Numbered from the stretch's first letter, positions 3,572-60,238 are shown. The stretch: DNA of 64,000 bases from a virus (IMGVR_UViG_3300021256_000077:33488-97487); one strand, 5' to 3'. The notes: generated by a model not told the origin, from the sequence alone. A program made the numbers and translations.

Positions 3572-3647
3572 TGTCGGTGGTGGGATTTGAACCCACAGTT
3601 TTACGGTTTTAGAGACCGCCCCGTCTCGCCAATTGCGGCACACCGAC
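3572..3647 (-). tRNA. Amber-reading tRNA, anticodon CUA, Leu-like body
   Basis: GTCGGTG TG CCG CAATTGGCGAGA CGG G GCGGT CT CTA AA ACCGT AAAACT GTGGG TTCAAAT CCCAC CACCGAC A: full cloverleaf, anticodon at 3610-3612, A73, A15:U48, 3-bp D-stem, CCA not encoded. Confidence 0.92.
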
Positions 3648-3648
3648 G

Positions 3649-4242
3649 TTAATAGCCGTAAAGGTGGACGGGATTCAGAAACGGGTTGCTCAGTGTCTCC
3701 TGCATGTTTGCCCCGGCTGGAATCTGCCATACCGGGCCTTCTGGCTCAGCCTTAAGCCGCAAATGATACAGCATGTGATCATAGTCTTTCGGCGTCATGC
3801 TAAGCATCTTTGCCAGTTGGTATCCCAGCTCCCGCCGTTCTGGTGACGGGTCGTAGGTCGAAGGAAGCACGTGAGCAAGCGGTGACGGGTCAAGTGCCTC
3901 GTCATCCAGAATGAGTTGATCAAGAATCAAATCCTCGATCATCCACTGCCATGCCGTACCCCACACCGCGAACCAGTCCTCGTACTGCCCGTACTGTGGA
4001 ATCAGCCGCAGAATACGTTTACCATCTGAGGCCCACATGAAGTCGCAGAAACGGCTGAAGACATGCCGGAAGAAGAGGGTATCACCCGTTCCCCGTATGT
4101 AGAAAAGGCAGCGCAGAGCAAGGTTCGAGTCCTCGCTCCATGCCGCCTGGAATACATGAATCATTTCGTCCGGCGGAAGTCGGCTAAGCTTTCCCGCCAT
4201 GTCATACATCTTCTGAACCGCGCCATTCATTGGTTGCCTCAT
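3649..4242 (-). CDS. DUF2828-like (TROVE/Ro60-related) protein, N-terminal part only
   Basis: FQAAWSEDSNLALRCLFYIRGTGDTLFFR...LIPQYGQYEDW resembles the AlkllFylRD..G.GEr..Fr...ipeyGrwdDl pattern; ATGA overlap with the upstream stop. Confidence 0.6.
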   Translation of the reverse strand: MRQPMNGAVQKMYDMAGKLSRLPPDEMIHVFQAAWSEDSNLALRCLFYIRGTGDTLFFRHVFSRFCDFMWASDGKRILRLIPQYGQYEDWFAVWGTAWQWMIEDLILDQLILDDEALDPSPLAHVLPSTYDPSPERRELGYQLAKMLSMTPKDYDHMLYHLRLKAEPEGPVWQIPAGANMQETLSNPFLNPVHLYGY

Positions 4243-5480
4243 TTTAGTCTGATTGGATATGTGCAACGCCGTCCATATTCGCGTTCCATAACCAGAGCAA
4301 TGGCTCCAGGCTCTCCGCCCATCTCACACGCCACCGCATAGTCATTCATGCCGCAGATTGACGGGACGCGCAGGATCACGCTGTTGCCATCACGGGTTAC
4401 GCCCGCATTGAATTCCTCGGCCTTATGCAGATGGCCGCAAAGGAAGAAGTCCACAGGGACTCCGTAAAGGTTTACGCTGTCTCTGGCAATGTCGCTGATC
4501 TTCTTGCCAAACGCGCCGTCGCCATGAAGAAGCATGAAGTGGTAATCGAAGACGCTGAAGTACTCGCGCCGTTCGCCCTTGCCTTCCACGGAAACAAGCT
4601 CATTGTCCTGGAGTCTGGCTTTCAGATACCAGAGGATAATTCGCTCAAGGTTTTCATCCTCGAACTCGCGTGACTTCGCACCCAGCGGCCTGACCTCGGA
4701 ATGGTTGCCGTTCACAGCATGCACGACCACGTATGCGTATTCCGAAAGGGAATTAATCCATTCTGCGAGATATTCCGCAAGGTACATGGTCTGGTCGATC
4801 ACGCCGTACTCAAGTTTGGTGAGCTGGTTTTTATGAATCATACCGTCAATCATGTCGCCTACGAAACACAGGTGAACCACGCTGACTTCCTCGTGCATTA
4901 CGATGGCGGCCGCCTGATCAAGCAAGCTGTCCATCCGCTTCTCAAAGATTTCCCGGTTGTAGGCGTTCAGCACATCGTCCCCGCGAAGACCCTTGATGTT
5001 GAACTCCGCGCCGTAATGCATGTCGCCTATTCCAAGCACAAGCTCCCGGTTCTCGGTGCGATCCGTATAGACCGTGGGTGAAACTGGCGGGCGTTCAAGC
5101 TTGGGCATCTGTCGTGCGGCTTCCACGATGGCATCGGCCAGTTCCTGCCGTCTGGCATCGCTCCGCATGTAGGAATTGATTTCCCGCCTGAGGTCGCGCA
5201 GTTTCTGTTTGTCACCGTAGACCGAAGTGCCGTCGTAGGCCGTGACGTTTTCCTCATGGGGCGTGCTTGCACGACCCTGCTCAGCTTCCCCGGCCTCCAG
5301 GTCTGCCACGAACTCCATGCCCACCGCAGCCTTCCGCAGATGGTCGGGCGTCATGTCAAGGTCGTAGAGATCAACAAGTTCGCTCCAGTCTATATCGGCC
5401 TAGCCACGCTTCTTGGCGACCGCCTGTTCCAGAAGTTGTCGCCGTTCGGCCAGACACATCTCTTCAAATTTCCGTCCCAA
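4239..5480 (-). CDS. Calcineurin-like metallophosphoesterase (one in-frame TAG)
   Basis: GDMHYG, VGDMIDG, GNHSE, LLHGD, GHLH motifs. Reading through TAG 5400-5402 adds the N-terminus MGRKFEEM...KKRG*ADIDWSELVDLYDLDMTPDHLRK, with an RBS and a TTG start overlapping the upstream gene. Confidence 0.85.
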
Positions 5481-6180
5481 TTTCCTTTACCGCTCCTTCT
5501 GGCAGTCGTTCCATGTTTTGATCATAGAATATGCCGTTCTCGGATACGATGACCGTATCCATTGCGTAGTACATGCCAAGTCCCGTTTCCTGCCCGCCGT
5601 ACTGCGGTGCGCTCAGATGCCACGTGCGTCCGCCCCAGTGGAATATCCCTTCGGTGTCCACCCGGCATCGAGTGAGATCATGGAAGCCGCCAATCTTCCG
5701 CTCCATGGCTACGCGCTCCTGCCTGTCCAGCGTTTTCGGTCTGGGTGCGGATTTGCGCTTTACCTTGGGAATGGCCTCATCCAGCGTATCCATCACTTGC
5801 CGGAAAACGCGCCACTCCTCGGCGTCCCCATTGGGAATCCCGGGCGTAACGTGGCTGCCGATCTGCTCGGACACACTGGAGGGACATGAGGATACCGGGA
5901 TCTCCCTGGCCGCATGAACACGGGCCTTGTAGTCAGTCTCGATATCCTCCATGTCGCCCTGAAGCAGGAAATAGGCAAGGCTGTCCTAAAATCGCTTTAC
6001 TTTCATTTCTGGAGAGTAAAGGTCGCCATGGTCGTTATCCCAGTTGCGCAGGCAATAGGTTTCCCAGCGGCCTATCAGCTCGTTGGCAATCTCCATCCGT
6101 TCTTCGAAGCTGTCCGTTTCGACGAACCTCGGATACCCCGTCGGCTGCGCTATATGGAATCCTCTTCCCATGTTATCCAC
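5464..6180 (-). CDS. Hypothetical protein, 238 aa (one in-frame TAG)
   Basis: Track ORFs 5986-6180 and 5464-5952 are in the same frame, joined across TAG 5986-5988: KVKRF*DSLAYFLLQGDMEDIE. Confidence 0.8.
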
Positions 6181-6209
6181 CCTTCCCTATGTTTATATCA
6201 AACAAGTGG

Positions 6210-6833
6210 TCACTTTTCGCGCAACTCTTCCAGCGCACCCGCCGAAAGTAAGCCCATGTATATCTTGAGCATCTGATTTTCTTCGCTGTTCGGGTCATCA
6301 TCCTTGGCGAATTCTTCAAACGGTTTCAGCTCTTTGCTGTTCCGCCAGTTGATGAATGCCTGTGGATGTTCGAGTATGAGGTTCAAGAAATCGATAAAGT
6401 CGTTATATGCCTGGGGATGATCAAGCATGTCGTCGAGGTTCGGAAACTCGTCCTCATCGTCATCGTCCTCTTCTTCCGGCTCGTCCTCTTCCTCTTCGTC
6501 GAACCACGCTTTCCGCAGGTAGTCGAGATCGAACTTCGTCATATCCTCACCGTCCACATTCATGAACCAGGCATGCGCGTTGATTGCCTTCTTCACGTTG
6601 TTTTCCTCGATTGCCTGGGAGATCGCTTTCCCGGCCACCCCGGAATCTTCGTTGGCGTACTCGAGCAGAAGGCCGTAGATGACAAGATCAATTTCACCTT
6701 CGCTCGGATCGCAGACTCTGATCCAGCTCTTTACCGGATCATTCGCAAATTTTGCATGAGAATTAATCCAAAAATCTCCGTACATAAGTCCCTCCAAATT
6801 CTTCTCCCAGAAATAGGGATGTTTTTCTTCCAA
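6210..6833 (-). CDS. Acidic hypothetical protein
   Basis: 207 aa ORF with a long D/E tract; start uncertain. Confidence 0.6.
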   Translation of the reverse strand: MEEKHPYFWEKNLEGLMYGDFWINSHAKFANDPVKSWIRVCDPSEGEIDLVIYGLLLEYANEDSGVAGKAISQAIEENNVKKAINAHAWFMNVDGEDMTKFDLDYLRKAWFDEEEEDEPEEEDDDDEDEFPNLDDMLDHPQAYNDFIDFLNLILEHPQAFINWRNSKELKPFEEFAKDDDPNSEENQMLKIYMGLLSAGALEELREK

Positions 6834-6903
6834 AATCCGCGTTCAGATTTCAGGTGGACAATTTATCGACTTTCGATCTGGAACGCGAAATTTGAACTTG
6901 TTC

Positions 6904-7194
6904 TCACACTTGAGTGGTGAGTTCGGATGAAGCTGAACGTCTTACCCTGGCCAACCTGTCCGCCGCCACCTTTTTCTGCTCGTCTGTCATGTGCACTTTC
7001 CTCGGCGGGCTGATCCTAACCCAGCTTCGGGGAAACATCGCCACGATAGTGCCGTCATTGTCTTCCGGCCTCGTCTTGATCAACACATCGTCCGGGTGTT
7101 TCTTTGCAAGCCGCAGAATGGTGTTCTTCAGCTTCTTCTCGTCGCCACTTGCCCACACCGTTTCACTGTTCGTCCAATCGATTGCGCAATCCAT
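6904..7194 (-). CDS. Phage hypothetical protein
   Basis: GGAGGAG RBS; ...ENDGTIVAMFPRSWVRISPPRKVHMTDEQKK. Confidence 0.7.
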   Translation of the reverse strand: MDCAIDWTNSETVWASGDEKKLKNTILRLAKKHPDDVLIKTRPEDNDGTIVAMFPRSWVRISPPRKVHMTDEQKKVAADRLARVRRSASSELTTQV

Positions 7195-7306
7195 ATTCGT
7201 TTCTCCTCCACTCAACACTCAAGTCTAGTTTTGCTCTCCAATTTCGCGTTTCAAAGTCTGGGTGGACATTTTATCAGGTGCGACATCAGAACCGCCAAAT
7301 CAGGAA

Positions 7307-7636
7307 TCAATCCCTGACTTGAGCGTAGACTTCCAACCATCTGCGGTTGTTCGCCTCCACGATCTTTGCCACCGCCGACTGAAACGCCCGCCTGATCCGA
7401 TCCCGGCTAATCCCGGTGTACGAGGAAACGTCGCCCATCTGCATGCCCCGCTCCTAGCAAGCCACCACGCGCCCCTCCAGCTCGTCCAGGCCAGCCGACT
7501 CCTTAGCCGCATCAAGGGCGATGTAGGCCAGGATGGCGTCCTCCTTGGCTGGGGCCGCGCTCCGCTCCTGAATCTAGGCACGAACGATGCGGGCCTCACT
7601 CATCGGCAGGTAGCTCCAGTCTTCAATTCTCCTCAA
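7307..7636 (-). CDS. Sigma-70 region-4-like HTH protein (two in-frame TAGs; missed by ORF track)
   Basis: MRRIEDWSYLPMSEARIVRA*IQERS...AYIALDAAKESAGLDELEGRVVAC*ERGMQMGDVSSYTGISRDRIRRAFQSAVAKIVEANNRRW. TTG start overlaps the upstream TGA; TAGs at 7574-7576 and 7454-7456. Confidence 0.8.
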
Positions 7637-8067
7637 ATCCCATCCCCGCCTTCGGCGTTGATGGTCTTATCCTGTAGACCACCGCTTCCGCGCTGGCCTT
7701 CGCTTTCCCCGCTTTCGCCCGCCCCGTGCTTGGGCTTGCCCGCCTTGCCCGCCTTATCCTTTCGCATGGCTTCGTCGTACATCGCCTGTAGCTTTGCCAG
7801 CCTCACCTTGGTTTCCTTGTGCTCCTTGTTGAGCGCGTTGTACTCGTCGTCCGCCTCATCCAGGGTGCGCTGCATGTTGGCCAGCCGTTCATTCAAGGTC
7901 TCCACTTCGCTGATTCCGGCCACCGCGTTCACGATATCGTCCACGTGGCTTGCCATGATATTGCGGATGCGCTCCTTGGAAGACGCCACCCCGTTGCCCG
8001 TCTGCTTGGCCGCATCAAGTTTCCGCTTTGCGGACATCAGTTCATCAATCCAGCCTGAACTTGCCAT
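7633..8067 (-). CDS. Coiled-coil hypothetical protein
   Basis: AAAGGAGA RBS, heptad-rich sequence; first gene after the 8.14 kb promoter motif. Confidence 0.75.
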   Translation of the reverse strand: MASSGWIDELMSAKRKLDAAKQTGNGVASSKERIRNIMASHVDDIVNAVAGISEVETLNERLANMQRTLDEADDEYNALNKEHKETKVRLAKLQAMYDEAMRKDKAGKAGKPKHGAGESGESEGQRGSGGLQDKTINAEGGDGI

Positions 8068-8109
8068 TGTTATCTCTCCTTTCACTAGGGGTATCTTCTC
8101 CCCCTACGC

Positions 8110-8162
8110 TTTATAAGATCACAAGGTCACATGTTTTTTGCACGGGCCAGAAAAATTTTTTT
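8110..8162 (-). promoter_or_regulatory. Phage-specific promoter motif (CGTGCAA-N13-TTGTGATC-TTATA)
   Basis: One of six matching copies located just upstream of an RBS. Confidence 0.65.
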
Positions 8163-8196
8163 CGCCGCGGCCTGTTGACCACCCCGCCTGGTCCCT

Positions 8197-8630
8197 CGCG
8201 CGCGCGCACGCGTATATATAATTAATTAAATAATAGATTTAAATAAAATACTCTTAGATTTAGAGAGATATTGATTAAATAAAAAAAGATATAGAGTCAA
8301 CTCTATTAACAAAGTCCTATGTTTTAAGAACCTAGTTAAATTATAGAGTCTAGTATTAACAAACACCTTAATTAAAACATAAAAATACCATACAGTTAAC
8401 TCTATAAATATAATCCCTTCATGGAGTACTAGATACATACTCTATTTACTACATGCATTTAGTACTGAGTTTAAAACATAGATCTTAGTAGTTGGTAGTA
8501 TCTTTAAAACATACCAAAGATAATTTATTAGAACTATGTTTAAAATTATAAAGATCTATGTTTTGGTTTAGATAGAGTCGACTCTATTTATAAAGTTATA
8601 CGTTCTAAGAACCAAGTTTATATATAGAGC
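8197..8630. repeat. AT-rich repeated region at the strand-divergence point; candidate replication origin
   Basis: About 60-bp direct repeat (8291-8350 vs 8572-8630), each copy starting with the palindrome ATAGAGTC(A/G)ACTCTAT; very low GC compared with flanks. Confidence 0.6.
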
Positions 8631-9235
8631 CGGAAACGACGCCTGGGGGATGCTCGTTCGTCGGCACGTCGGTATGCGTCTGATGTGCTATGCTGCGATT
8701 GATTCAAGAAAGTTGACTGAAGGAAATTTTTATTTAAGCCGCAAAAAGGGGAAACAGGAACGTTTATGTTTTTTTTACCTACTCGCCCACTAGGTTATTA
8801 TGTTTTCGAACGTTAAGTTCCAGGCAATTTAATGCCACATCTGTTTTGCGATATTTGTGCGGCTATTACAAGTGCTCGGCCAGGCGTTGTCTACCATGTA
8901 ACTTTTATTATGACACAATAATTTTCGGCATTGTCAAGCTGCGTAAATTTATGTTGTATCAAATATTATTTTATCCAATACGATTTTCCAGTGCCGGATT
9001 TCATATCGAGTAGAAAGTGGAAGAAGACCGCGCATATTTTGAGTTGCGCTTGTTTTTAGTTTTTCTTTGCGGCTGAGGGCGAAGCTTAGCCTGGAGTTTT
9101 CCGGCGAAGGTGGGAGGTTGAGGTGGGGTGAGGAAAAGTTGACATGCGTTGAAAAGTATGTCGAAAAAAGGTTGCATGGGGGTTTAAAAAAAATTTATAG
9201 ATGTCAGACGTAAAATAATAAATCGTCTAAATCTC

Positions 9236-9620
9236 TGCTATACTTGAGTTGCCAAAGGGAACGGCGAAAGCCGAACCCCAAGGACAGGTCAGAATCCCCG
9301 AGTCGACCGGGAAAAGTCGACATCCGCACGAATCCCATCTCGCATGCGTGGCAATGCATGCGCGGTCGTTCCCCGTCTCACGTTTCCTGCGTGCCGTTGC
9401 GCGTTGTGACGGATTCCCACGCACTGCCCGCGCGTTGTGGGCTTGTGACCGGGCCATGGCTGTCCGTTTCCGCTGAACCTTGAAAAACGCATAGACCGGG
9501 AAAAGCTCCACAAGTAGCGGGCTTATTCTGAACTATGCGACCGCCCACGGTATACGTGGGATGAGCGACAGACGGGCGTCAGGCCCGGGCATACGTGCTC
9601 GGATTGTATCTGTTAACTCT
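9236..9620 (+). promoter_or_regulatory. Extended -10 promoter plus long structured leader with a boxA-like element
   Basis: TGcTATACT at 9236-9244; several GC hairpins; GAACCTTGAAAA at 9475-9486. Confidence 0.5.
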
Positions 9621-9657
9621 ACAACTCTGTCTATTTTGAAAAGGAAGGTATCTAACT

Positions 9658-10398
9658 ATGAAGAAGAATATCGCTGTGGAACTCTCTCTGCCTGAATCTA
9701 TCCTGTATCCTACTCTGTCTCGTGACTTTGAAGAAGTCAAGGCCTACTCTGACGCTACCCGCGCCTATGACAAGGCTGTCGCTGATGATAACGCTACCAC
9801 CACGTCTATTCAGACCGCGAAGGTGACAATGGACAGTGCCCGCGATGCCGTCGCTGAAAAGTCCCTGCGTACCTATGCCGTCAAGATGGAACAGCTCGCG
9901 CAAGAGGTGGGCAAGCCTGTTACCTACCTGAAAACCGTCTATCCGTACTATGCCACCTGTCAGATTTCCCATGATGGCGGGTATGGCGCGAATATCGCGA
10001 ATGACGGCGCGTGGGTGACGCTGTACGACGTCATCGACGTGGAAGCGTCCGGGATTGTGCGCAAGCTCTATCAGGAAGTCATGAAGCGCGTACAGGTCCA
10101 GTACATTCAGGAAGGATTCGCCACGGGCGAACTGGGCGAAAACACCGTATCCGGGAACTGGATTCGCAAGCAATTGCTCGAGATCGTCAGCAAGTACATC
10201 GACCCGGAAGGCGAATATCAGGCCGTAACCATGGATGTCAAGCAGATCGAGGGCGCGTTCCTGACCACCTTGAAGAACAAGACGAACGTGGTCAAGCTTC
10301 CGAAGGAAGACGAATTCGACCGGGTCGTGCTCAGAGTTCTGAACAGGATTTGCACAGGTGGCCACTATGAGTTCGAGGTCAAGAAGGCCCGCAAGTGA
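9658..10398 (+). CDS. Hypothetical protein, first gene of the rightward (early) operon
   Basis: Strong RBS AAAGGAAGGT, 246 aa, followed by a terminator. Confidence 0.8.
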   Translation: MKKNIAVELSLPESILYPTLSRDFEEVKAYSDATRAYDKAVADDNATTTSIQTAKVTMDSARDAVAEKSLRTYAVKMEQLAQEVGKPVTYLKTVYPYYATCQISHDGGYGANIANDGAWVTLYDVIDVEASGIVRKLYQEVMKRVQVQYIQEGFATGELGENTVSGNWIRKQLLEIVSKYIDPEGEYQAVTMDVKQIEGAFLTTLKNKTNVVKLPKEDEFDRVVLRVLNRICTGGHYEFEVKKARK

Positions 10399-10400
10399 TC

Positions 10401-10434
10401 GAAGGGGGTTCGCCCCCTTCCTTCTTTTTTTTTT
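10401..10434 (+). terminator. Rho-independent terminator
   Basis: GAAGGGG-GTTCG-CCCCTTC followed by a long T tract. Confidence 0.8.
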
Positions 10435-10828
10435 GTTCCTGGAACGACCAGCGCGTTCCAAGATTTTTTTTTTTTTTTTGGATTTTTTTTGGAGGTGCGA
10501 ACTATGGGATTGTTCATCACAAATTCTTCGGAACTCATGGAAATTCTCGGAGTTAATCAGGCCGTTGCTTCTAGCATGGCTAATAACATCGCTCGATACT
10601 TTGACAGTAGAAAAGAAAAGCTAATGACAACAATCGTTGTCATGTTTAAGACGCTTGCCCTTGCAGAGGTCATCGACGGCGAAACATTCGATTCAACGAC
10701 TATCTATTTCATGCTAGAAGATTGCTCATCCGCCCGCGAGTTCGTCGACGAGCTTCGCAAACTGAAGGAATACTATGCCTGAGGGCTGAACGGCCCTCTT
10801 TTTGTTTGGAAGAAAGGAAGGAATCATC

Positions 10829-11668
10829 ATGAAAAAAATTATTCGCGTTATCCGTAAAATGTGGCTACTCTCAAGAGAAACCGTCGCCCGCATCGTAACG
10901 ACCGCCCTGGCAATCATCGGAGCATACGAACAGGACAACGTCCCGGTCAAGATTTCCCTGAGCCGTGGCAACCGCAAGATCGGCAAGGCCTACAACTTTA
11001 GCACGATGCCCGTAATTACCTGTGGAGCATGCCACGACTGCAAACGGGGATGCTATGCCATGAAGTCAGCAGCCAGATACCCGACCTGCATCCGGGCATG
11101 GAGCAAGAACACATTCATGGTTAGACACTTCTTGTCCGATGTCTACGAACAGCTCACGGAAGAATTCCGCAGAGTGACCAAACCCGAAAACAAGTACTGT
11201 CGAATTCACGTGGCAGGTGAGTTCGAAGCGACCGACTACGCAAAACAGGCAATCGTGGACAAGACCACGAGAAAGTTCGGATGGGCAACACAGCCTATCG
11301 AGTTCACCCGGTGGGGTGAGCTTGCAATGTGGGTACAGCTTGCCCTGGAGCACCCGGACTGGACATTTTGGACCTACACCAAAATGCACTGGGTGGTCAA
11401 TCTGTACTGCCTGCTCCATGGCGGTAGGCATGCCGTCCCCCGCAACCTGACCATCATGTTCAGCCGTTGGGGGCTTCGAAGCAAGATCGACAACCCATAT
11501 GGATTCCCTGAGTTTATCACTGTTCTCACCGACGAGGGCGAGACCATGCCCGAAGGGTTCTGGGTCTGCCCCGGAAGGTGCAAGGAATGCAAGAAGGAAA
11601 CCAGCAAGGACGGCAAGTGCCACGGATGCCTTGCTAACGAAACCACTGTGACCGAGAACCATAACTGA
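10829..11668 (+). CDS. GP88-like (radical-SAM-related, Cys-rich) phage protein
   Basis: GNRKIG, TCGACHDCKRGCYA, RIHVAGEF, FWTYTK, NLTIMFS and C-terminal CPGRCKEC motifs. Confidence 0.7.
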   Translation: MKKIIRVIRKMWLLSRETVARIVTTALAIIGAYEQDNVPVKISLSRGNRKIGKAYNFSTMPVITCGACHDCKRGCYAMKSAARYPTCIRAWSKNTFMVRHFLSDVYEQLTEEFRRVTKPENKYCRIHVAGEFEATDYAKQAIVDKTTRKFGWATQPIEFTRWGELAMWVQLALEHPDWTFWTYTKMHWVVNLYCLLHGGRHAVPRNLTIMFSRWGLRSKIDNPYGFPEFITVLTDEGETMPEGFWVCPGRCKECKKETSKDGKCHGCLANETTVTENHN

Positions 11669-11957
11669 TGTGTGCCCGGGCGTGGTGGATTCCCGCCCGG
11701 GGAAAGGAAATGAATATGACAGATTATGAAATCATGCTGGAAAATATGCTGAATTATGAAGAAACGATGAGCGAAATTAATGCGGAAATTTACGAAAATG
11801 ATTGTATCTATGCGGAATGAGGAAAATACCCAATGCGGAAAATTCTAATGCAATTAATGGGCAAATTTGTCCACATAATCCATGCCGGAAATAATGCGCA
11901 AATTAACACATTAGCAGAATTTAATGGGCAAACCAACGAATAAAGGAGAAATGCATC

Positions 11958-14171
11958 ATGAAGTATGTACTGTATATGCCAAGTAAAAATATTGTTAAGG
12001 TATTCGACGTACGTGTTAAGAAAGACAGGCATGATATGTTCAATTTCATGCTGGAAAATTACGAAAATTGTGAGTCGTTCAAGATATATAGAGCGACGTT
12101 CGAGCTTGAACCTGTTTGGTGGACGGCGCGGAGTTTCCACGGCCAGGTCATGGAAATCGAGTTCGGCGACCGCTACGGGACGGTCTACGACACCATCTCG
12201 ATTCAGTATGGGGAGGAATGAGAAATGATCGCGATCTCTGGCAAATACGGCAACTTGGTATATGAAACCGTCGAACCAGAACCCGAACACGAACCCGCCA
12301 GGGTGGTCTACCATGGCCACCACTACGTGGAAGTGGATGGGCACATCTACGTAGAACCGGGCTATTACGCAGTCGATGACGGCAATCATCCGGGTTGGAT
12401 TGACACCTTCGTCACCAAAGAAGCTGCCCAGAAATGGGTGGAGCACCTTGAAAACGAGGGCTGTGCACCCTCATGTATCTACGTACTACATGATGAAGTA
12501 AACCGATGCGGAATTTGCAGATTATCGCAAATCCAATGCGGAAATTCTCGCAAATTGTCGCAAAATTAATGCGGAAAATTTGTAAATAATCGCAAATCCG
12601 TCCGGAAATTTCCGTGCGGATTTTTAGATTGTCGCAAAACGAAAGGAACAGTAATTATGATTAAGCAGATTAATAAACTTCAGGACTGGGTGCGGATGAA
12701 CTTCGAATTCATCCCTACTCGAATCGTCGCGAAACTTATGGAAGCCGGGGAAGACATCCCCGAACTGACCCCTACTGACGAGGAATACGACGACGTGCTG
12801 CCCATGTGGGGAACCATGTGGAGCTTCCATGAAGAACTCGATTCGAGCTTCATCAAAAAGATCGCGGAATGCGGATTCCGGGTATTCTATCAGGATGACC
12901 TTGGATATCTCATTGGAATTGACGGTGGCGGATATGACTTCATGGAAGCACACTGGCTTCCGTTGTATCGCGTATTTGGCGGAACGGATATTGACTAACA
13001 ACTAATGCGGACTTTCTCAGATATTTACACGCCAGGGCTGATTATCGCCCTGCGTTTTTAAGTGCGGAATTTTCGCGGAATTGAAAGGAGAAAAAATATG
13101 AGAACATATAAGCTATTTCGTGAAAAGAATGGCAAACTCTACCCCTTATTTGTAAACGCCAATGAGGAAGTGCCCGTTGGCGAATGGCTTACCGCTCAGA
13201 TCGGCGCGAAAGCTGATGATACGCATGTTAAATCCCGTCTTGGCGCGTTGTCACTTCGTCCGGGTTGGCACTCGTGCACCGTGCCGTTCACGGACTGGAT
13301 TGGCAAGAAAGGTACGGACGGAAAGCTGTATCAACGGCCCGGAACTGTGTGGGCTGAATGCGAAATTGACGGCGAACCGCAGGAAGTTACCGCCAGGAAC
13401 GGGCTGCGGGAACTCCCGGATACGTGGTATCACTTCCGCACCAACGCCAAGCAGATTTGGCCTTGGATCATTTCCCGGAAGATCAAAGTTGTGCGGACTC
13501 TGACCCATGAAGAGGTCGAGCGGATTTGCGAGTCGTACGGAATAAAAGCGCAGGAGGTGGCATAACATGGCAACCATCAGCACCAGGGACGGATATAAGT
13601 ATGTTCGCCTTGCGGAAATCCCCATGAACGATGGGAAGTTCAAGTTCAATGGTCGCGAATATGACTTGGATGCGGATTTTGAACCGATTGGATATCCCGA
13701 GTTTTACGACGATGAGGACGGTAAGCTGCGTTTCCTGTCCTATGTGGAACGTGAAGAGTGGCGCAACCCGCTCATGCTGGAAGTCGGGGAATACATGGAC
13801 GAGGTAATCATATACAGGGAGGAGAATGAAAATGACTAAGACTGAATTTATCGAGAGCATGCAGAACTTCATCGACGAACTCAAAGAAGGAAGTTGGGGG
13901 TGCTTTGATCCCTCAAAGGGTGTCACCCTTTTTGGAAACAAAAACTATGGTGAAATTTGGATTGATGTATCCGAAAGCTGCACGATCAACGCAAAGCTGT
14001 ACACCGCAACCGAAGAAGAAAAGAAAGGCTGAGGTGCGGAAAATGTTGAGATCAGAAATGTTGGAACAGGAACGCCGTGAGAAGCGCAATGCCATCACGA
14101 CGTTTTTGATTGAAGGAATCCTGACAGGCCTTATGGCAATGGGTCTGTTCTGGATGGCAATGCATGTGTGA
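11958..14171 (+). other. Run of small early hypothetical CDSs (11958-12221, 12225-12569, 12657-12998, 13098-13565, 13567-13839, 13826-14032)
   Basis: Consecutive + strand ORFs with AGGAG-type RBSs and TAA/TGA stops. Confidence 0.7.
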
Positions 14172-14187
14172 TGAAAGGAGAAATAAC

Positions 14188-15210
14188 ATGAATCTTTTAT
14201 CTCTCTTTTCCGGGATCGGAGCGTTCGAACGTGCGCTCCAGGAACTCGGCGCGGACTTCGACATCGTGAATTACTGCGAGGTCGATCCGTACGCCTCGAA
14301 AGCATATTCCCTTCTGCACAACATTCCAGAATCGCGGAATCTCTGGGATGTGCGGAAGGTGGATTGTAGGAGATACCCGTACGGGAAGCTTGATCTCCTG
14401 ACCTATGGCTTTCCATGTCAGGACATCAGCATTAACGGCAGGAAGCAGGGCTTCCGCAATGAGGACGGCACGACAACACGAAGCGGACTGTTTACGGAGG
14501 CCGTCCGTATCATCCGCGAGACCACGCCGAAGGTGGCGATTGCGGAAAATGTCAAGAACTTGCTGTCCACTGGGATGACGGAAGCACGTCAGATCGTGGC
14601 GGAAACGCTGAATCGATCTGGCTATAACAGCTATTGGGCAGTGCTGAATGCGCAAGGCTTCGGCATCCCGCAAGCCCGTGAGCGGGTGTTCATCGTCAGC
14701 ATCCGCAAAGATTTGGACGATGGGAGCTTCACCTTCCCTATCGGATTTCCGCTGACCAAACAGGTAGCGGACTTTCTGGATGCGGAAGTGCCAGAAAAGT
14801 TCGACATACCGGAATCACACAAGGCGGGCATGGAATGGCGAACCCACTATGAGAACATGGATGACCCGTTCGGCATCCACTGGGTCGGAAACCTCAATCA
14901 TTACAACTACCACAAGATGAACAGAGTCTATTCGGCGTACGGAAGCTGCGCCACTTTGGACACGGTTTCAGGTGGTGGTCGGGCAATGAAAATTCTCGCC
15001 CCGGATGGCAGGGTACGGTATCTCACCCCTGACGAGTACTTCAAATTGATGGGGTTTACGCAGGAAGACGTTGATCTTCTGCGGGCAAACGGGCTGAGCA
15101 ATTCCCGCCTGTATAAGATGGCCGGAAACAGCATCGTTGTCCCTGTCGCAAAGGCAGTATTGAAACAGGTTATCAATGCGGAATTTTCGCAGATCGAAAG
15201 GAGCGCATAA
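14188..15210 (+). CDS. DNA (cytosine-5) methyltransferase, orphan
   Basis: LFSGIG, GFPCQD, ENV, QARERVF and YKMAGNSI motifs. Confidence 0.93.
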   Translation: MNLLSLFSGIGAFERALQELGADFDIVNYCEVDPYASKAYSLLHNIPESRNLWDVRKVDCRRYPYGKLDLLTYGFPCQDISINGRKQGFRNEDGTTTRSGLFTEAVRIIRETTPKVAIAENVKNLLSTGMTEARQIVAETLNRSGYNSYWAVLNAQGFGIPQARERVFIVSIRKDLDDGSFTFPIGFPLTKQVADFLDAEVPEKFDIPESHKAGMEWRTHYENMDDPFGIHWVGNLNHYNYHKMNRVYSAYGSCATLDTVSGGGRAMKILAPDGRVRYLTPDEYFKLMGFTQEDVDLLRANGLSNSRLYKMAGNSIVVPVAKAVLKQVINAEFSQIERSA

Positions 15211-15212
15211 CA

Positions 15213-16728
15213 ATGACGGAATACAGAGTTTTGATAGTGACAGCCAATAATCGCACCATTCAGCTTGGTGTGATAACCGCTTCCCCTTCCGCAACGGTCG
15301 CGGAGTTTATTGGGGAACTTCATCGGGGATTCTACATCCCCCTTGGACTGCCGGAAGAGATGGTGAACGTAGTGTATAGCCGCAAAGATCACCTGTTCAT
15401 CGTGAAGGATTTACTTCATCGTGAAACCGTGTGCTATCTCCACCAGGTGGCGTAACGAATAAGGAGGAACGAACAATGGCTAACATTTTCACGGTCAAGC
15501 TCGAACGGATTGAAACTCTTATGGTTAACGTGATCGCAGATTCTGCGGAAGATGCGGAAGATATCGTCGAGTCCGCAGTATATGACGGACTTACAGTTTC
15601 GGACTTCTTTGAGAATGAAGTTGTCACGGAAAGTATCAGCGCCTCTGCCATGAGCAAGACCCGTGGTTATGGGGTTCAGATGCTTCCTGACGAGTTCTAC
15701 CCGGAAGAAGACGAGGGGGCGGGAGCATGAGTATATGGGAGTGGTTATGGCCCGACCTCTACTCGGGCCTCCCCCTTTTCAACTGCGGAATGAAGGTCGG
15801 GAAGATTTCCGTCAAGACCTGCGATAAATGCTACCTGCGGAGCGTCTGCAATATCTATGCAGAGCACGCCAACGATAAGAAGGAGGAAACGAAATGATTT
15901 ATACCGCTGAAGAAATGGAACTGCTCACAAACAATGTACAGCAGATTGAATCTTACCTGCGCGGATTGATGCCGGAAATTCGGAAGCCCATCCATATTGA
16001 GTTCGGCGATATCATTACCCACCCTGGTAACTATGGACGTGTGACGATGGAAAATGAGTACGAACTTATCGTTGATAATGATGATATCTGTGGTCGGCAT
16101 GGTTGCTTTACCCTCAATTTTTTCGGTAAAAGGTCTGACAGATCAGCTTGGACGGTTATTCCGATCTATACCCCGCGTGGTGCGGATTACATGATGAAAC
16201 TGTGCAGAGACTGGAAGGTTATCAAGTACAAGATTCTCGTTGAAATCAACAAGCAGAAATCGGAACTCGAACAACTGAAAAACTTTGAACTGTGAATAAG
16301 GAGGAAACGAAATGAAATGCTCTTGCGGATGCAATGAATTCTATGCACAGCAAATCTTGTATGTAAATGTGATTGTCGATGGTCATAACAATTTTCTGCG
16401 GAATGAGCATGAAAAAGAAACGGATAACTTTGTGCCGGGGCTAGATATTTATGACTGTGAAGCTCCGTACGGACCATTCATTTGTGTAAATTGCGGAGAA
16501 GTATATGACAAATTGGAGGGATGAACAATGGCAACCAAGATCAAAGACCTCAAGCATGGCGAGTTCTTCACGCTGAAACCCATTGCGGAACCTAAGGAAT
16601 CTCAGGTCTACGTCCGGGGCGAATATGATCGCTCCGAGCGGAAGTACTGGGCACAGAAATGGAACGACATCGGCGACGGCAAGTATCTGGACGGTAACCG
16701 CACTGTCTATACAGATTTCACATTCTGA
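15213..16728 (+). other. Small early hypothetical CDSs (15213-15455, 15476-15730, 15894-16295, 16312-16524, 16528-16728)
   Basis: Tightly packed ORFs, each with an RBS. Confidence 0.7.
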
Positions 16729-16742
16729 AAGGAGAATTGATT

Positions 16743-19341: not shown

Positions 19342-19354
19342 GGAGGAGCGAACA

Positions 19355-23183: not shown

Positions 23184-23196
23184 GGAGGCCGATATT

Positions 23197-41018: not shown

Positions 41019-41336
41019 ATGATAAAGTGGGTTAACAGCAGTTACAACCAATGGATTCTTCTGTAGGGTAACAGCCTGATTGATCAGCAGGAACTTGCCA
41101 ATATCATCACTACGAACAACGGACATATGTACCGTATCCCGTAGGAAAAGAGTGCAAAGTTCGCCTACAGTACAGCATCAGATCTGGACGAGGTAAAGCA
41201 CATCTGTGAGCAGGCAGCACTCTACGCCCTGCGTCAACACGTCAAGATGCTTGAACAGGCCATCATCGACTAGGAAACGATGTTGCCGCCGGAAGGAGAT
41301 GATGACACAGATGTCGCTGTACCTCCTGTGCCTTGA
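41019..41336 (+). CDS. Hypothetical protein, 105 aa (three in-frame TAGs; missed by ORF track)
   Basis: ATGA overlap with the upstream stop; WILL*GNS, YRIP*EKS, EQAIID*ETML; TAGs at 41064, 41142, 41271; ends in TGA overlapping the ruvC-like start. Confidence 0.72.
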
Positions 41337-46913: not shown

Positions 46914-46930
46914 TAAGGAGGACAACAACA

Positions 46931-47986
46931 GTGGCACGTAAGCTTGCAAGCATAGAGCGAGTATGGAAAGTCGAGCCGATTGAAGGCGCGGACAAGATCG
47001 AACTGGTACACGTTCTCGGATGGCAGTGCGTTGTAAACAAAGGACAGTTCAAGCCCATGGACCTCGGCGTGTATTTCGAGATTGATTCTTTCCTTCCGAT
47101 TCAGCCTGAGTTTGAGTTCCTGAGAACTTCGAGCTACCGGAAGTCGGACATCATGGGAGAAGGATTCAAGCTCAAGACCATGCGGTTCAAGGGTCAGATA
47201 TCGCAGGGGCTTCTGCTTCCTCTGTCCGTCTTCGGTGATCTGTTCAAGGATGCTACAGTCGGTCAAGCCGTAGCAAGTACACTTGGTGTAAGAAAATGGG
47301 AAGAGGAAGAGCGTGCAACTACTGGCGGCACGGTAATCGGTGGCCTTCCCTACGATGTTCCTAAGTCAAATGAAGACCGAATTCAAAATTTTCCTGAACT
47401 GCTTGAGGAATTCCGTGGCCTGGAGTATTACATCTCCACCAAGATGGACGGTTCTTCCCACTCCATCTCAATTGATACTAACGGTGTGCATGTAACCGGG
47501 CACAACTACGAGTACAAGGATGACGGGTCTAGTTCCTTCTATGAGTTCGTCAAAAAGAATAGTTATCTGGACAGGATCATGCACTATGCTGAGACTCACC
47601 AGTTCACGATTCAGACGCTGACCATTCAGGGCGAGTTCTGTGCCCCGGGCGTTCAGGGAAATCCCGTGAAGCTCACACGACCCGAGTGGTATGTCTTCAC
47701 CATCCGGGTAAACGGCAAGCGGGTCTCGCTGGATGAGATGCTCAAAATCTGTAGAGACATTGATATCCCGACCGTTCCGATTGAAGAGCGTGGCTTTGAC
47801 CTTCCGTCGATATATCCGACAGTAGATGCAGTACTCGAACGTGCCGAAGGCTACTATTCTACTGGAAGCCGCAAAGAAGGTATCGTCATCCGGCCTACCG
47901 AGCCTGTATTCTCGAAGACGATCAGCGCAAGCCTGTCCATGAAGGCTGTAAGCAACACGTACCTTCTGAAGAAGAAAGGTGACTGA
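46931..47986 (+). CDS. ATP-dependent RNA ligase, DRB0094-like family
   Basis: RKLASI, IEGADKIE, YFEIDS, SQGLLLP, KMDGSS, QGE, EGIV motifs. Confidence 0.9.
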   Translation: MARKLASIERVWKVEPIEGADKIELVHVLGWQCVVNKGQFKPMDLGVYFEIDSFLPIQPEFEFLRTSSYRKSDIMGEGFKLKTMRFKGQISQGLLLPLSVFGDLFKDATVGQAVASTLGVRKWEEEERATTGGTVIGGLPYDVPKSNEDRIQNFPELLEEFRGLEYYISTKMDGSSHSISIDTNGVHVTGHNYEYKDDGSSSFYEFVKKNSYLDRIMHYAETHQFTIQTLTIQGEFCAPGVQGNPVKLTRPEWYVFTIRVNGKRVSLDEMLKICRDIDIPTVPIEERGFDLPSIYPTVDAVLERAEGYYSTGSRKEGIVIRPTEPVFSKTISASLSMKAVSNTYLLKKKGD

Positions 47987-51685: not shown

Positions 51686-51871
51686 ATGACGAGAAGAGAC
51701 TTGGTTGAGTTGGCAGAGCTTTAGGAACGATACGAGCTTGAGTGTGAGAGTCAGTGCGAGGATTGCTCATATGCGCTGCTCGATCCTGATACGCCCGCCT
51801 TTCCAAATTATTACTGCCCGTAGAAAGAAACGTACCGCATGGTGTGTGAGAGATTGGAGGATATACAATGA
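51686..51871 (+). CDS. Small Cys-rich protein (two in-frame TAGs; missed by ORF track)
   Basis: MTRRDLVELAEL*ERYELEC...NYYCP*KETY; GGAGG RBS and ATGA overlaps at both ends; TAGs at 51722 and 51821. Confidence 0.8.
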
Positions 51872-55600: not shown

Positions 55601-58600
55601 GCCTGACAGATTTGGACGAGAGCTGAAACCTGAGAAGGTAAACAGTGAAATCAAAGGGGAACTTGTCCGATGCGAAAAATGCATCTATGGAGACGACTTT
55701 GATTGTCCCGCTCCACTTCCAACCGGATACCTTTGTCAAAAAGGACACGGATCACACACTGGTGATTGGTACTGCGCAGATGGTGAAAGGCGAGAAATAA
55801 ATGATTGAAGAAATGTACTACGATGCGTTCGAAAACACCTATGTCCTGGAGCTAGATTTAAACGCGCCGCCAGAACGGTACACACCCTTGTTCAGGGGAA
55901 TAAATGGCATGTGGATTGAATCATGGACGGTCAATAACGATAGTAGTTTGCGCATGGACATCGCCTTCACCGAGGATCAGTATTATGACGATTACTGGCA
56001 CAACGCCATTGTCCAAGACATGTGCGAGAAAAACCACTGTACATTGTCCCAGCTCAAATACGTTGTCATGCCGGAACACGAGTTTGATGAATGTGTCGCC
56101 AAAAGGATTGATGCGGAATGAGACAGATAGATGCAGATGCGCTGTGGAACAATATGGAAGCAGCGGATTGGTACAATAACGCTGACCGCGACGAAATTGC
56201 CGAGAAACTTGTTTTGGAAGCTCCTACTGTTGGCGAATGGATCAGTGTTAAGGATCATCTTCCTCCGAGCGAGAAACATGTACTGGCTAAGACAGACAAG
56301 TATGAATGCGTAGCTTTCTACGCCGAAAGATTCTCTGTTTCAGTAGGATACTATACTGACGATGAAATTAACTGTGAATACAACGAAGACTTGGATGAAT
56401 ACTTCCTGATCGAAGGTTGGTACGAGGTTGTCCATAACTGGGAAGATTACTCAAGTGTCACGATTGAGGACGAAGTAATTGGCTGGATGGATTTGCCGGA
56501 GAGGTAGAAGGAGTAAGTATGATTAGATGGGATTACTCGCTTAACTGGAAATATATCGTCGACAAAATGGAAGAGAAGTTTGGACTTAAACCAGACTCTA
56601 CAGAGAAGCTTTCGATGGGCGATATCCAGAGGAAGATCGAAAAGATCTGGGTAGAATATGTAGATATTCTAGATGAGAAATACGCAGAAGCTGAGATTGT
56701 AGATTCTCTGAACAAGGAGATGGCGTGATGAGTTCGCCGTTAACAGCAGACGAAGTTGATAAGCTTGCTAGAAAATATCTCTGGCAAGCTTTTTGGTTGG
56801 AGAGAAAAACCGGGGAGCTGGAAGTCATCTGCATGGACATGATCGGCTATGCCAGTCGAGGAAAGATTCTGGTGTACAAAAAGACTGACCCGCATTTGAA
56901 TAGCATGAGCATGGAGTACTTCTATGACCCGTTCGTTGACTACGATAAAGACTGGCGACTGTGGGACAACGAACCGACCGAAGAAGAAAGGAAGTCTGCG
57001 GAATGGAAGACAGCATAAAGAGGTGTCCGTTATGTGGCGGCAACGCGGCTATAAGTTTCTGGCTAGAAGAAGATTTTGACAGCTACGCAGCCGGAAGAAT
57101 TCGATGTTCTGAATGCTTCGTAACACTAGAGTGTCGGTTGAAGATTCAGTTCAACACGAATAAGAATCCAGGCGAAACTTTTATGAATCTTGAGAAGAAA
57201 CTGAAAAACACTTGGAATAGCCGCGTGGAAGGAGATTGATCATGATGGCTGAGAAAACAGTAATCCCGCATCGTAACTACAAGTACCTGTCCGACTACTG
57301 GTGTGAGTGTGGATGGCATCTCGGGAAGAAAGGCTCAGTAAAATACTGCGCCGACTGCGGAAGGAGGATTGATTGGGATGGCTGCCTGTGAAAGAGATGA
57401 ACTCGATGAATTCATGACCGCTCTGGAGAATGCGGGCATCCTTTCCGGCTGGTCAAAGTTTATGGGCAGAACAGAGGAGATAACGTGCAGAGACTGTCTT
57501 CTGAATCGTAACTGTCCTTGCGGATACTCTGCCGGGAACGCTGCTTGTCTGACGGTAAGACAGCAATACGCCACGACCGCGATGAACAACGCGCTATACA
57601 GAAAAATTATGGAAGAACAGGACGCTTACCAAGACGAGATGGATGGTATCGCCGAGCAATACGAAATGGAGTGTTCGCAGTGATAGTTAAATATGAGCCA
57701 AACAAGATCACCGCGACTTTGAGAGCTGTTGTAGCCGGAGAGTTTCACGACGGTGCTACGGGAGAAACAGTTCGCCGCTGTGTGGAGCAGCTCTTAAGTG
57801 CCGGGTTCGATGTTAACGTAAAACTAAAGTATTACACCATGGACCGCATTTCGATAGAAGAAACAAAGATCACAGCAGCTTTGTGGTTAAGAGTTACTGG
57901 AGAGTTTTACGACGACGAAGCATCAGAAGAAACACTTCGCTACTGTGTTGAGCAGGACCTGGAAGACGCTGGGTTTTACGCTGATGTAAGCGTGATGAGG
58001 AATGGAAAATGAGCTACAAGTAACGGAAACCGAAATGGTGTCCGCTGAAGAAAAAGGAGGAAGCCGCAAATGACAGGGCAGAAACTGATTAATTGGATCG
58101 TAGAGCACAACGCACAGGATATGCAGTGCGTAGTTCAATACCGTGATGGCGGTGGCCTTTACTCTGGAGGCGACATACCAGAGTTCCCGATACTCGCTTC
58201 ATATAAAGGCTGCGACATCCCGTATGATGACGATGTAAAGATCAATTACGATACGGACGAACCGAACTGCTTCGTTCTTTGAGGAGTGGTGCTTATGACT
58301 TGTGCTAACTGCCCGTACTGCGTTCAATACTTGCAGGATGCGCAGGGCATTCCGTGCATCGCCTGCCTCAAAATGCCGAGCAACAATCCTGCCGGGTGCG
58401 GATATATGATCATCGACATTGCAGATTACACGCAAGGCAGAGCATGGTTCTGTCCGCTGAAGGAATAGGAGGATCATCATGAGACCAATCGATTGTGATG
58501 CTTTGGTAAAATTCCTGCGAGATATGGCCGAGTGCGATTCATGTCACAACTACAATGGAATAAAGTGTAGAGCATGCCTGTGGGATGACGTGATTACTGC

Positions 58601-60238
58601 CGTAGATGACTTCGGTGACAATCATCCGATGACCTTTGGACACTGGAGACAAGAACATGGATATGCAACAGCGGGAGGCGATCCCGTTTTTGTTTGCGGC
58701 TCATGCGGTGGATCGCTTCATGTGTATGGAGTAGAACATCCAATCGGACATCGTGCCACGAACAGCGACGGCGAATATAAAGAAAGCCTGTACACCACAA
58801 GAGAAGCAGCTCAGAAGAAGGCAGACATCCTGAACCTTTTCGAACACAATGACTCGTGGACGTGGAAGGTTGATGAGAAGGAAGTAGTCCAGGAATCCGT
58901 AGAGCCACTCTGGTTTTACGGAAGTTACTACCCTCTTTCCGGCGAGTTATTTGTGCTGGAAGGCTGTGCTTACGAAGACCTGCCAGAAAAGCGCAGAATG
59001 CATAGAGATGTGATTTTGAACGGGACGACATACGATTTCGCCATGCCGTACGACGAATCGATCAAAGACTGGAACAGCCTGGTTGCCTATGTTCGCGATA
59101 GGTACAAACTAATAAAGGAAGTAAAGGAGTAGAAAGACAATGGGAAGTAATAGCTGGAGAGACAGCCCGATTACAGACAAGCAGTTGGCATACATCAGGC
59201 AGATGCAGCTCGATGCCGACATGAACGGTGCAATTCCCCTGCCCCCTTTCAGAGGTGATACGAAAGGCGCGGCATGCGATTACATCAACGAGAATAAGGG
59301 TAAACAGTTTGCGGCGTTTGACTTTTATGGCCACGGCGACAACTACGGAGACAGGGTGTGAATATGGATAAGTGGATGGAGCTTAAGGAAACCATACAGG
59401 AACTGCACGACAACAATTCCGATAAGCCGGATGTTGAGAACGTCACGCGCTTCCTGCTGAACTTGATGAATGTCAAGGAGGTAAACGAAGAAAAGCCGCA
59501 GAATGTCGACATAAGAAACTGTATTAGCCTCTGGTGCGACGACATCACATTCTGCCATGTAAACTGCGACTGGATGGACTGCCCGCGAAACTACAAAAAC
59601 ATCCGGGATAAGACGATCCCCCACTCTTACTTCATTGGCATCCCAGACGACTGCCCAAAGAAACTGGAGGAATAAAATGAGTTATGACATTCGATTTGCC
59701 GTGAAGGTTGCCGGGACAGATAAAGACATCTATGCGGTGATCGGCCATCCCGAGTACGACAGTCCGACCTACAATCTCCGTCAAATTTTCGTCAAGTGTA
59801 TGGACTGGGATTACGATCAGGGTGAGTGGTACAGGATGGATGAGGTCATTCCGAAGATTGAGCACGGCGTTCATGAACTGGCATTCCACGAAAAGAAATA
59901 TAAGCCACTTGAGCCGAAGAACGGATGGGGTCAGGTTTCGTCGGCGATGATGTGCTTGCAGTCGATACTGGACTGGTTCAAGGACCCCTGGAATCGCGGA
60001 TGGAATGAAGACATACCGATTGAATGCATATACATGGCGTGGTGATCAGCCGTCATCAAAGATGTGTTCAAAATCAAGGAGGAGGCAGTTGCTTATGAAG
60101 ATTTCAAAAGACGAATGTGACAAAGATTTTGCTGAAAAGAAATTGGAATTGTCGGAAGAAAAATGCGGACAATGCGAGTACTTATACTTGTGCCCATATA
60201 TGGCCAGAGCGATGGAAGAAGTTGTAGAAGGAGACTGA
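52684..60238 (+). other. Array of small, partly paralogous Cys-rich hypothetical CDSs
   Basis: Recurring modules DxEKVxxGLExC, ALELLKEQ, C-terminal YCxxCG and DWxCADGE. Confidence 0.7.

Follow-up and report, generated by a model that had tools for sequence, protein, structure and literature searches.

Analysis of a phage genome from a metagenome assembly indicates that the amber codon TAG is a sense codon in this virus, which we regard as nearly certain, and that it very probably stands for leucine. The stretch of DNA analyzed (IMGVR_UViG_3300021256_000077:33488-97487), hereafter called the window, is 64,000 nucleotides long and corresponds to positions 33488-97487 of a virus record that consists of one contig of 97,487 bp with a G+C content of 0.49. 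This record is listed as linear in IMG/VR and its completeness is estimated at 84% by CheckV. Coordinates are those of the window unless stated otherwise. The initial annotation, made from the sequence of the window, had proposed that 11 TAG codons interrupt seven otherwise intact genes and are decoded as leucine. At all 12 TAG coordinates that it gave, namely the 11 interrupting codons and one at 56505, a TAG is present on the expected strand, and the 11 codons are contained in seven read-through genes that have TAA or TGA as their sole stops. Across the whole record, TAG is found in frame inside approximately 25 genes, with about 50 TAGs in 97 kb, and the only tRNA encoded carries the matching anticodon CUA.

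TAG is a sense codon and the only reassigned stop

Scanning IMG/VR with the large terminase subunit (TerL) identified 11 related loci with 50-99% identity, and four of the corresponding records were analyzed whole. The relatives are also recoded. Homology between the phage and these relatives crosses 28 TAG codons, one TGA and one TAA, the latter two being located at gene junctions. This count was limited to true gene frames because six-frame and all-long-ORF (open reading frame) comparisons also caught off-frame and antisense alignments between related DNA. The earlier statement that no comparable TAA or TGA interruptions exist is thus borne out. Crude gene calls made with translation table 11 in the window end in TGA in 63 cases, in TAA in 37 and in TAG in five, in agreement with the observation that genes mostly end in TAA or TGA. 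When TAG is treated as sense, coding density increases from 0.82 to 0.85 and the total coding score increases as well. Treating TGA or TAA as sense lowers both values, so the coding density check that had been suggested singles out TAG. The coding score on either side of a stop did not discriminate, neighbouring genes often sharing a frame. Elsewhere, table 11 translations give full-length family matches, in which the sense codons are judged collectively, and these matches together with the coding-score models indicate that TAA and TGA stay stops and that other codons are standard. An independent IMG/VR contig (L004) that is 99% identical to the phage, with 97-100% protein identity, retains TAG at all sites of the region common to both.

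Genes restored by reading through TAG

The seven read-through genes of the window are the following:

4239-5480, minus strand: metallophosphoesterase/exonuclease of 413 amino acids; TAG at 5400 (codon 27); PHROG 284 exonuclease, E 4e-54; Pfam Metallophos
5464-6180, minus strand: conserved gene without assigned function, 238 amino acids; TAG at 5986 (codon 65)
7307-7603, minus strand: small regulator resembling sigma factors, close to the head of the late arm; two TAGs, at 7574 and 7454; weak match to PHROG 3512 sigma factor, E 2e-4
36604-36807, plus strand: small Cys-rich DUF7445-like protein upstream of nrdD; TAG at 36667 (codon 22); Pfam DUF7445, E 4e-4, below the family cut-off
41019-41336, plus strand: 105-amino acid ORF filling the gap between nrdG and ruvC; TAGs at 41064, 41142 and 41271; gene structure only
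41299-41859, plus strand: RuvC-like Holliday junction resolvase of 186 amino acids; TAG at 41458 (codon 54); Pfam RuvC, E 6e-11; PHROG 159, E 8e-21
51686-51871, plus strand: Cys-rich ORF of 61 amino acids; TAGs at 51722 and 51821; ATGA overlaps at 51686 and 51868; gene structure only

As had been claimed, read-through joins the two catalytic halves of the RuvC-like resolvase. The Pfam RuvC domain is matched by residues 11-161 of the read-through product, a segment that includes the TAG at residue 54, positioned after the N-terminal catalytic Asp and before the Glu/Asp half. In distant, non-recoded homologues, this column lies in the motif HGQ[RK]L and is Leu in 51 of 58 sequences, with Gln being absent, and the codon at the position of 41458 is TTG in the closest relative (G001). 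Scans of viral contigs and metagenome contigs yielded no close relatives by RuvC.

The restored N-terminus of the phosphoesterase and the restored sigma-like gene are likewise upheld, as relatives align across their TAGs. For the phosphoesterase, the closest relative has Leu opposite TAG 5400, and the other relatives have mixed residues there. In the sigma-like gene, the column of TAG 7454 is Leu in all six aligned relatives (xLMxGY), and that of TAG 7574 has Leu in relatives, with TAG itself in one of them (G003). Homologues of this gene in at least five relatives bear TAGs of their own, one of them, in G003, at the same column. The TAG at 5986 faces Leu in seven of seven relatives, with a local identity of 0.64-0.93. 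For the DUF7445-like protein, Leu is the commonest residue at the column of TAG 36667 among 70 homologues (22 L, 11 V, 10 Y, 6 I), and the closest relative has Tyr; one homologous-protein search with this ORF returned no match.

The ORFs at 41019-41336 and 51686-51871 occupy gaps that are empty under table 11. Here, the proposed filling of gaps by genes with start/stop overlaps is confirmed by ATGA sequences at 41019, where the start overlaps the stop of the upstream ORF 40819-41022, as well as at 51686 and 51868. No homologues of ORF 41019-41336 were found in the homologous-protein search, and no significant homologue of the Cys-rich ORF 51686-51871 was found.

Some 40 additional in-frame TAGs lie immediately beyond the window in terminase, portal, capsid and tail genes, including 16 in a tail gene of 4898 amino acids, two in terL and one in the portal gene, with others besides. 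For the tail gene (genome positions 6873-21569; L002:74-14770, minus strand), TAG read-through gives one open frame of 4898 codons. The product, taken here as one protein, is presumably a tape-measure or tail-length protein and would be unusually long for a 97-kb phage.

Leucine as the probable residue encoded by TAG

Residues of relatives opposite the TAGs of the phage (115 residues at 31 sites) are Leu at a frequency of 0.37, followed by Ile (0.11), Lys (0.10), Met (0.05), Val (0.04) and Gln (0.03). In the same alignments, true Leu codons are found opposite Leu (0.45), Ile (0.12), Val (0.07) and Met (0.07), and Gln codons opposite Gln (0.24), Glu (0.14) and Lys (0.09). The profile opposite TAG matches that opposite true Leu codons. 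Using these forward sites, the site-weighted log-likelihood (lnL) is best for Leu, with Met at -2.8, Ile at -11.4, Val at -14.1 and Gln at -19.2 relative to it. The reverse tally, in which phage residues opposite the TAGs of relatives are counted at 23 distinct positions, gives nine Leu, four Ile, three Val and no Gln, and the reverse lnL is again best for Leu (Ile -2.7, Gln -27.5). The combined lnL values are 0 for Leu, -9.6 for Met, -14.1 for Ile, -21.7 for Val and -46.6 for Gln, with Tyr far under Leu. The column tally that had been suggested as a check therefore returns Leu as the maximum-likelihood residue, with neither Gln (4/115 forward) nor Tyr (2/115 forward) dominant. The assignment to Leu, initially proposed from the contexts of the codons, is now supported by lnL in both directions, by the RuvC and DUF7445-like columns, by the body of the phage tRNA and by the CUA tRNAs of relatives.

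A suppressor tRNA of probable leucine type

The sole tRNA gene in the 97-kb record is the following:

3572-3647, minus strand: suppressor tRNA with anticodon CUA; ARAGORN; Rfam RF00005, 53.5 bits, E 1e-8

This tRNA(CUA) forms a clean type I cloverleaf with G1-C72, A73 and no encoded CCA. In its D arm, UG-CCGC-AAUUGGCGAG-ACGG, the stem has 3 bp and a C13/A22 mismatch. The variable loop is 6 nt long with U as its last base, and the sequence of the T loop is UUCAAAU. Further features are A14, A15 with U48, G18G19 two bases past A15, G19-C56 and U54-A58. The D loop AAUUGGCGAG is of the same Leu type as that of E. coli leuW (AAUUGGUAG). The D arm AAUUGG..AG-ACG of tRNA(CUA) fits those of E. coli leuW (AAUUGGUAG-ACGC) and leuX (AAUCGGUAG-ACGC), while tyrT and serT have AGCGG. 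E. coli glnV has U1-A72 and G73, compared with G1-C72 and A73 here, so the body is not of the Gln type. ARAGORN assigns the label 'Pyl', and a blastn search of E. coli genomes with tRNA(CUA) was negative. Within the phage collection, tRNA(CUA) is matched best over its full length by short-arm tRNA-Leu(CAA) genes of Streptomyces phages, specifically Comrade tRNA-Leu(caa) (NC_048728.1) and its near-identical counterparts in five sister phages, with an identity of 74.6%; at E 0.05 this likeness is weak and may serve as a lead only. In E. coli, A73, A15-U48 and G18G19 are Leu determinants, and both the anticodon and the long arm are dispensable for leucyl-tRNA synthetase (LeuRS), variants without both arms still being charged (PMC9976931, review). 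Streptomyces LeuRS charges short-arm as well as long-arm tRNA-Leu (PMC6614811).

In six related phage lineages, a CUA tRNA is encoded at the corresponding position, 2.4-4.6 kb upstream of terL. A73 is present in all of these tRNAs, and in five of the six the variable region is long, at about 14-30 nt. Owing to the long arm and A73, the suppressors of the relatives should be of Leu or Tyr type, with Tyr ruled out by the alignments. The CUA tRNA of the closest relative (L006:8118-8215; IMGVR_UViG_3300021255_001460) is 98 nt long and has a 30-nt variable arm and A73. It was missed by ARAGORN and found by Rfam at 44.8 bits; surveys based on ARAGORN alone would undercount long-arm suppressors of this kind.

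Searches of the record for synthetases and release factors revealed neither a class I core domain of the tRNA-synt_1 family, to which LeuRS belongs, nor a PylS-type class II core domain (tRNA-synt_2d), and no release factor gene. Among hydrophobic residues, leucine is to our knowledge the only one whose synthetase ignores the anticodon. The methionyl-, isoleucyl- and valyl-tRNA synthetases (MetRS, IleRS and ValRS) each require their own anticodon; identity rules of this kind are covered in PMC9976931. Since the anticodon is not read by LeuRS and the record is without a synthetase gene, tRNA(CUA) is likely charged by the LeuRS of the host.

Two genes related to RNA may be mentioned in connection with the tRNA. 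A gene for a Ro60/TROVE-like RNA-binding protein (3649-4266, minus strand; PHROG 850, E 6e-13; weak DUF2828) stops a single base short of the tRNA 5' end, and an RNA ligase gene (PHROG 968) is located at 46889-47986 on the plus strand. Together, they hint that the suppressor may be subject to tRNA care or repair. Near the tRNA (900-3700), no Rfam family, Y-RNA-like or other, was found.

Distribution of TAG and a possible translational gate

Based on PHROG and Pfam scans, the minus-strand arm of the genome, which comprises the late (virion) genes, extends from genome base 1 to about 41.6 kb and ends at 8.4 kb of the window. TAG density is 3.03 per 1000 codons in this arm and 0.72 elsewhere, a fourfold difference, and the repressor, integrase, primase-helicase and DNA polymerase genes are TAG-free. 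TAGs are also skewed towards gene starts. Their median relative position in the gene is 0.20, compared with 0.51 for Leu codons of the same genes (Mann-Whitney p 3e-5), and the first 75 codons hold 56% of TAGs versus 15% of Leu codons. Five TAGs in crude gene calls (29387, 31961, 36719, 49917 and 60225) lie in antisense ORFs or upstream of real starts; they are retained in the position test and are not counted as recoded.

We hypothesize that host LeuRS charges the phage tRNA(CUA) without reading its anticodon, relying on A73 and the D-loop/T-loop corner, and that the phage tRNA then competes with host release factor 1 (RF1) at UAG. TAG-bearing genes, comprising most virion genes, the sigma-like regulator, RuvC and the exonuclease, would yield full-length protein only after the tRNA has accumulated, and an early position of TAG would make failed translation cheap. 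Recoding would in this way gate the lytic programme at the level of translation, a role already proposed for TAG-to-Gln phages. Judged from sequence data, we see about an even chance that TAG recoding gates late expression. No sigma-70-type promoter consensus was found in 3300-8700 on either strand, compared with 4.6 +/- 1.9 in shuffles, and none was found for the tRNA either, which is consistent with late transcription needing a phage factor.

A different kind of TAG is found at the ends of genes:

56505, 58466 and 59130, plus strand: gene-end TAGs in or beside AAGGAG ribosome-binding sites, with TAA or TGA 2, 10 and 5 codons later

Read as Leu, these codons would add short extra tails that end at the back-up stop. 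They may represent former stops that were rendered harmless and retained after recoding. The TAG at 56505 had been singled out for its context in the initial annotation; it is present, though it interrupts no gene, a TAA or TGA following two codons on. The ORFs at 56118-56516 and 58479-59150 both begin with MRxID.DAL, and a Cys-rich ORF (58286-58498) is located between them, each of the three ORFs ending in one of these TAGs.

Alternative explanations

A number of observations weigh against the assignment of TAG to leucine or against the proposed gate. At codon 22 of terL, seven relatives have Lys and one has Leu, all relatives have Thr at codon 71 of the capsid gene, and one TAG site in the tape-measure (tail) gene corresponds to Gln or Lys in relatives. 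We read these three polar columns as variable surface positions. Forward sites alone leave Met just 2.8 log units behind Leu, and five of the 11 TAGs of the window (41064, 41142, 41271, 51722 and 51821) are without homology support. The phage tRNA(CUA) does not have the long variable arm (type II) of ordinary bacterial tRNA-Leu. Further, it should be noted that the 5' skew of TAGs is perhaps slightly inflated by wrong starts and a few doubtful ORFs among the crude gene calls, and that the host is presumed to use the standard code on the basis of the TAG-free early genes.

Gln is the only TAG reassignment in the accessible phage literature, and one well-aligned tape-measure site does have Gln in the closest relative. 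That TAG is translated under code 15, with a suppressor of Gln type like those of crAss-like and Lak phages, is nevertheless highly improbable, with Gln accounting for 4 of 115 residues in the forward and 0 of 23 in the reverse comparison, an lnL of -46.6 against Leu, no Gln in the RuvC column and a tRNA whose G1-C72 and A73 are unlike the U1-A72 and G73 of E. coli glnV. We assign a small probability to Met, Ile, Val, Tyr or pyrrolysine being the residue inserted. Ile, Val and Met together make up about 20% of residues opposite TAG and Met is close to Leu on forward sites; on the combined lnL, all three fall behind (Met -9.6, Ile -14.1, Val -21.7), and their synthetases are anticodon-dependent. 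Met in particular is excluded mainly because MetRS needs the anticodon CAU. Tyr would agree in principle with the long-arm A73 tRNAs of the relatives, but it ranks far under Leu in lnL, is found in 2 of 115 residues opposite TAG, and the D loop has AAUUGG of the Leu type and not the AGCGG of tyrT and serT. In the case of pyrrolysine, suggested by the ARAGORN label, a host pyl system is conceivable; the tRNA, however, has normal D and T loops, and the record contains no PylS-like class II core domain.

The remaining alternatives concern the nature of the TAGs and not only the residue. The genome is temperate, with a repressor and an integrase, and comes from a metagenome assembly, such that the TAGs might reflect decay of a prophage or errors in assembly, the CUA tRNA being incidental. 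The probability of this is negligible in our view. Decay and assembly error appear to be excluded, as far as the data allow, because homology crossing is specific to TAG (28 versus one TGA and one TAA) and because the 99%-identical independent contig retains the same TAGs. In addition, relatives at 30-60% identity carry CUA tRNAs and have their own TAGs at other Leu, Ile or Val positions, and the codons opposite TAG are mostly CTG, which is two steps off, so the TAGs are not single fresh nonsense hits. Alternatively, TAG might act mainly as a stop, with low or moderate read-through late in infection and the residue being of little import. Host RF1 should compete at TAG, neither an RF2 nor an anti-RF1 gene was found in the record, many TAGs are near gene starts where premature stops cost little, some TAG columns tolerate polar residues and the three gene-end TAGs have near back-up stops. 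Yet a useful yield from the tape-measure gene of 4898 amino acids with its 16 TAGs, and from terminase, portal and capsid genes, needs efficient read-through, and the conserved-Leu columns of RuvC, 5986 and 7454 show that the residue matters. Such partial, timed suppression is about as improbable as a residue other than Leu or Gln, and it overlaps with translation of TAG as leucine more than it excludes it.

Comparison with known recoded systems

In phages whose code differs from that of the host, Borges et al. (bioRxiv 10.1101/2021.08.26.457843) found just TAG-to-Gln and TGA-to-Trp, and argued that the glutaminyl- and tryptophanyl-tRNA synthetases (GlnRS and TrpRS) are specially prone to capture. 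Code 15, translating TAG as Gln, has been validated by metaproteomics (PMC9523058), and later phage surveys simply apply it. The 'code 16' used for huge phages by Al-Shayeb et al. (PMC7162821) is a device to switch off TAG, the residue being left undecided. No report of TAG-to-Leu in a phage was found in the full-text literature searched, in which coverage of subscription journals is poor. The suggestion that such a code is undescribed for phages fits the accessible phage literature, where only Gln and Trp occur. TAG-to-Leu as a natural phage code is new against TAG-to-Gln and TGA-to-Trp recoding and is otherwise of the familiar suppressor-tRNA type.

The phage shares several features with the gut phages that use suppressor tRNAs, including a single stop codon used in frame together with a phage tRNA of matching anticodon, recoding mostly of structural and late genes with replication and lysogeny genes being standard, the existence of temperate members and a proposed role in timing of the lytic programme. 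It differs in that the residue is Leu instead of Gln, that the captured enzyme would be LeuRS, that its GC content of 49% is not low and that its roughly 50 TAGs in 97 kb are sparse and 5'-skewed. Because coding density changes just from 0.82 to 0.85, coding-density screens (10% gain, as in PMC13037316) would miss this phage.

NCBI table 16 (chlorophycean mitochondrial) also has TAG as Leu with TAA and TGA as stops, and UAG-to-Leu is known from some ciliates (PMC11687900). These are genome-wide organellar or nuclear codes of unrelated eukaryotic lineages, whereas the phage would impose its meaning of TAG on a presumably standard-code host and on part of the genes only. The initial description of the code as table 16-like therefore holds for the meaning of TAG and not for any link of lineage or mechanism.

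The E. coli supP/Su6 suppressors, derived from the leuX tRNA-Leu(CAA), are classical leucine-inserting amber suppressors, with CAA to CUA being a single base change. Because such suppressors are classical in E. coli, the mechanism of TAG-to-Leu is unsurprising in hindsight. Similar to tRNA(CUA), they combine a tRNA-Leu body with a CUA anticodon and a LeuRS that ignores the anticodon, charging of the phage tRNA being predicted. In contrast, they are laboratory mutants of a long-arm cellular tRNA, while here a natural phage gene with a short loop is found on which phage genes depend. The type I tRNA-Leu(CAA) of Streptomyces and its phages resembles tRNA(CUA) in its acceptor and T arms and has A73 and a short variable loop in common with it. 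Differences are the weak match, the CAA anticodon and the Actinomycete hosts. Charging of the Streptomyces type I tRNA depends on a special LeuRS domain (PMC6614811), which the phage host may or may not have.

TAG recoding in phages is currently assumed to give Gln and pipelines translate such genomes with code 15. If TAG-to-Leu holds true, database proteins would be mistranslated, with Gln placed where Leu is conserved in terminase, portal, capsid, RuvC and other proteins, and sparse, 5'-skewed recoding would be escaping coding-density screens. A third synthetase, the anticodon-blind LeuRS, would be exploited by phages beyond GlnRS and TrpRS. Compact natural tRNA-Leu(CUA) genes, some of them short-arm, would become available for testing suppressor timing of late expression, and tRNA-Leu(CUA) could possibly be used as a tool in Firmicutes. 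Tentatively, and with slightly less than even confidence, we propose that TAG-to-Leu might be a distinct recurrent code of a rumen/gut Firmicute phage clade that acts as a gate. It would be characterized by late-gene TAGs in the first 75 codons, by TAGs of the sigma-like regulator kept at 30% identity and by licensing through tRNA-Leu(CUA), the long arm of which would have been lost here to give a natural type I leucine suppressor.

Genome organization and additional features

The minus-strand arm encodes the large terminase, the portal, virion genes without family matches and the 4898-amino acid tail gene, followed by the Ro60-like RNA-binding protein, the exonuclease and the sigma-like gene. 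The plus-strand arm encodes methyltransferases, an anti-restriction protein, a CI/LexA-like repressor (on the minus strand) and a tyrosine integrase, as well as a primase-helicase, a DNA polymerase, NrdD/NrdG, RuvC, an RNA ligase and a thymidylate kinase. The two genes associated with lysogeny are:

24198-24839, minus strand: CI/LexA-like repressor; PHROG 4, E 3e-41; table 11 translation unbroken
26265-27257, plus strand: tyrosine integrase; PHROG 1, E 1e-28; table 11 translation unbroken

The nearest matches of TerL are found in phages of Clostridium, Bacillus and other Firmicutes at 25-31% identity. The phage is siphovirus-like and, with its repressor and integrase genes, temperate, and the affinity of TerL makes a Firmicute host probable. 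The TerL scan of genome contigs gave no prophage match.

The nrdD gene is split within 36779-40299. The piece at 36779-37474 matches positions 3-227 of PHROG 487 and that at 39139-40299 matches positions 341-714, leaving about 110 profile positions unaccounted for. An HNH endonuclease ORF (38101-38922) is located between the two pieces, and the break looks like an intron or other insertion bearing a homing endonuclease. No group I intron was identified by Rfam in 37300-39300. In the closest relative, a sub-threshold group I intron match is found at L006:20902-21107 (33.2 bits compared with a gathering score of 50, E 7e-5). Further, two paralogous DNA methyltransferases (PHROG 116) and the anti-restriction protein (PHROG 7245), located within 14164-17621 and 61812-62744, form an anti-defence set in the TAG-free arm.

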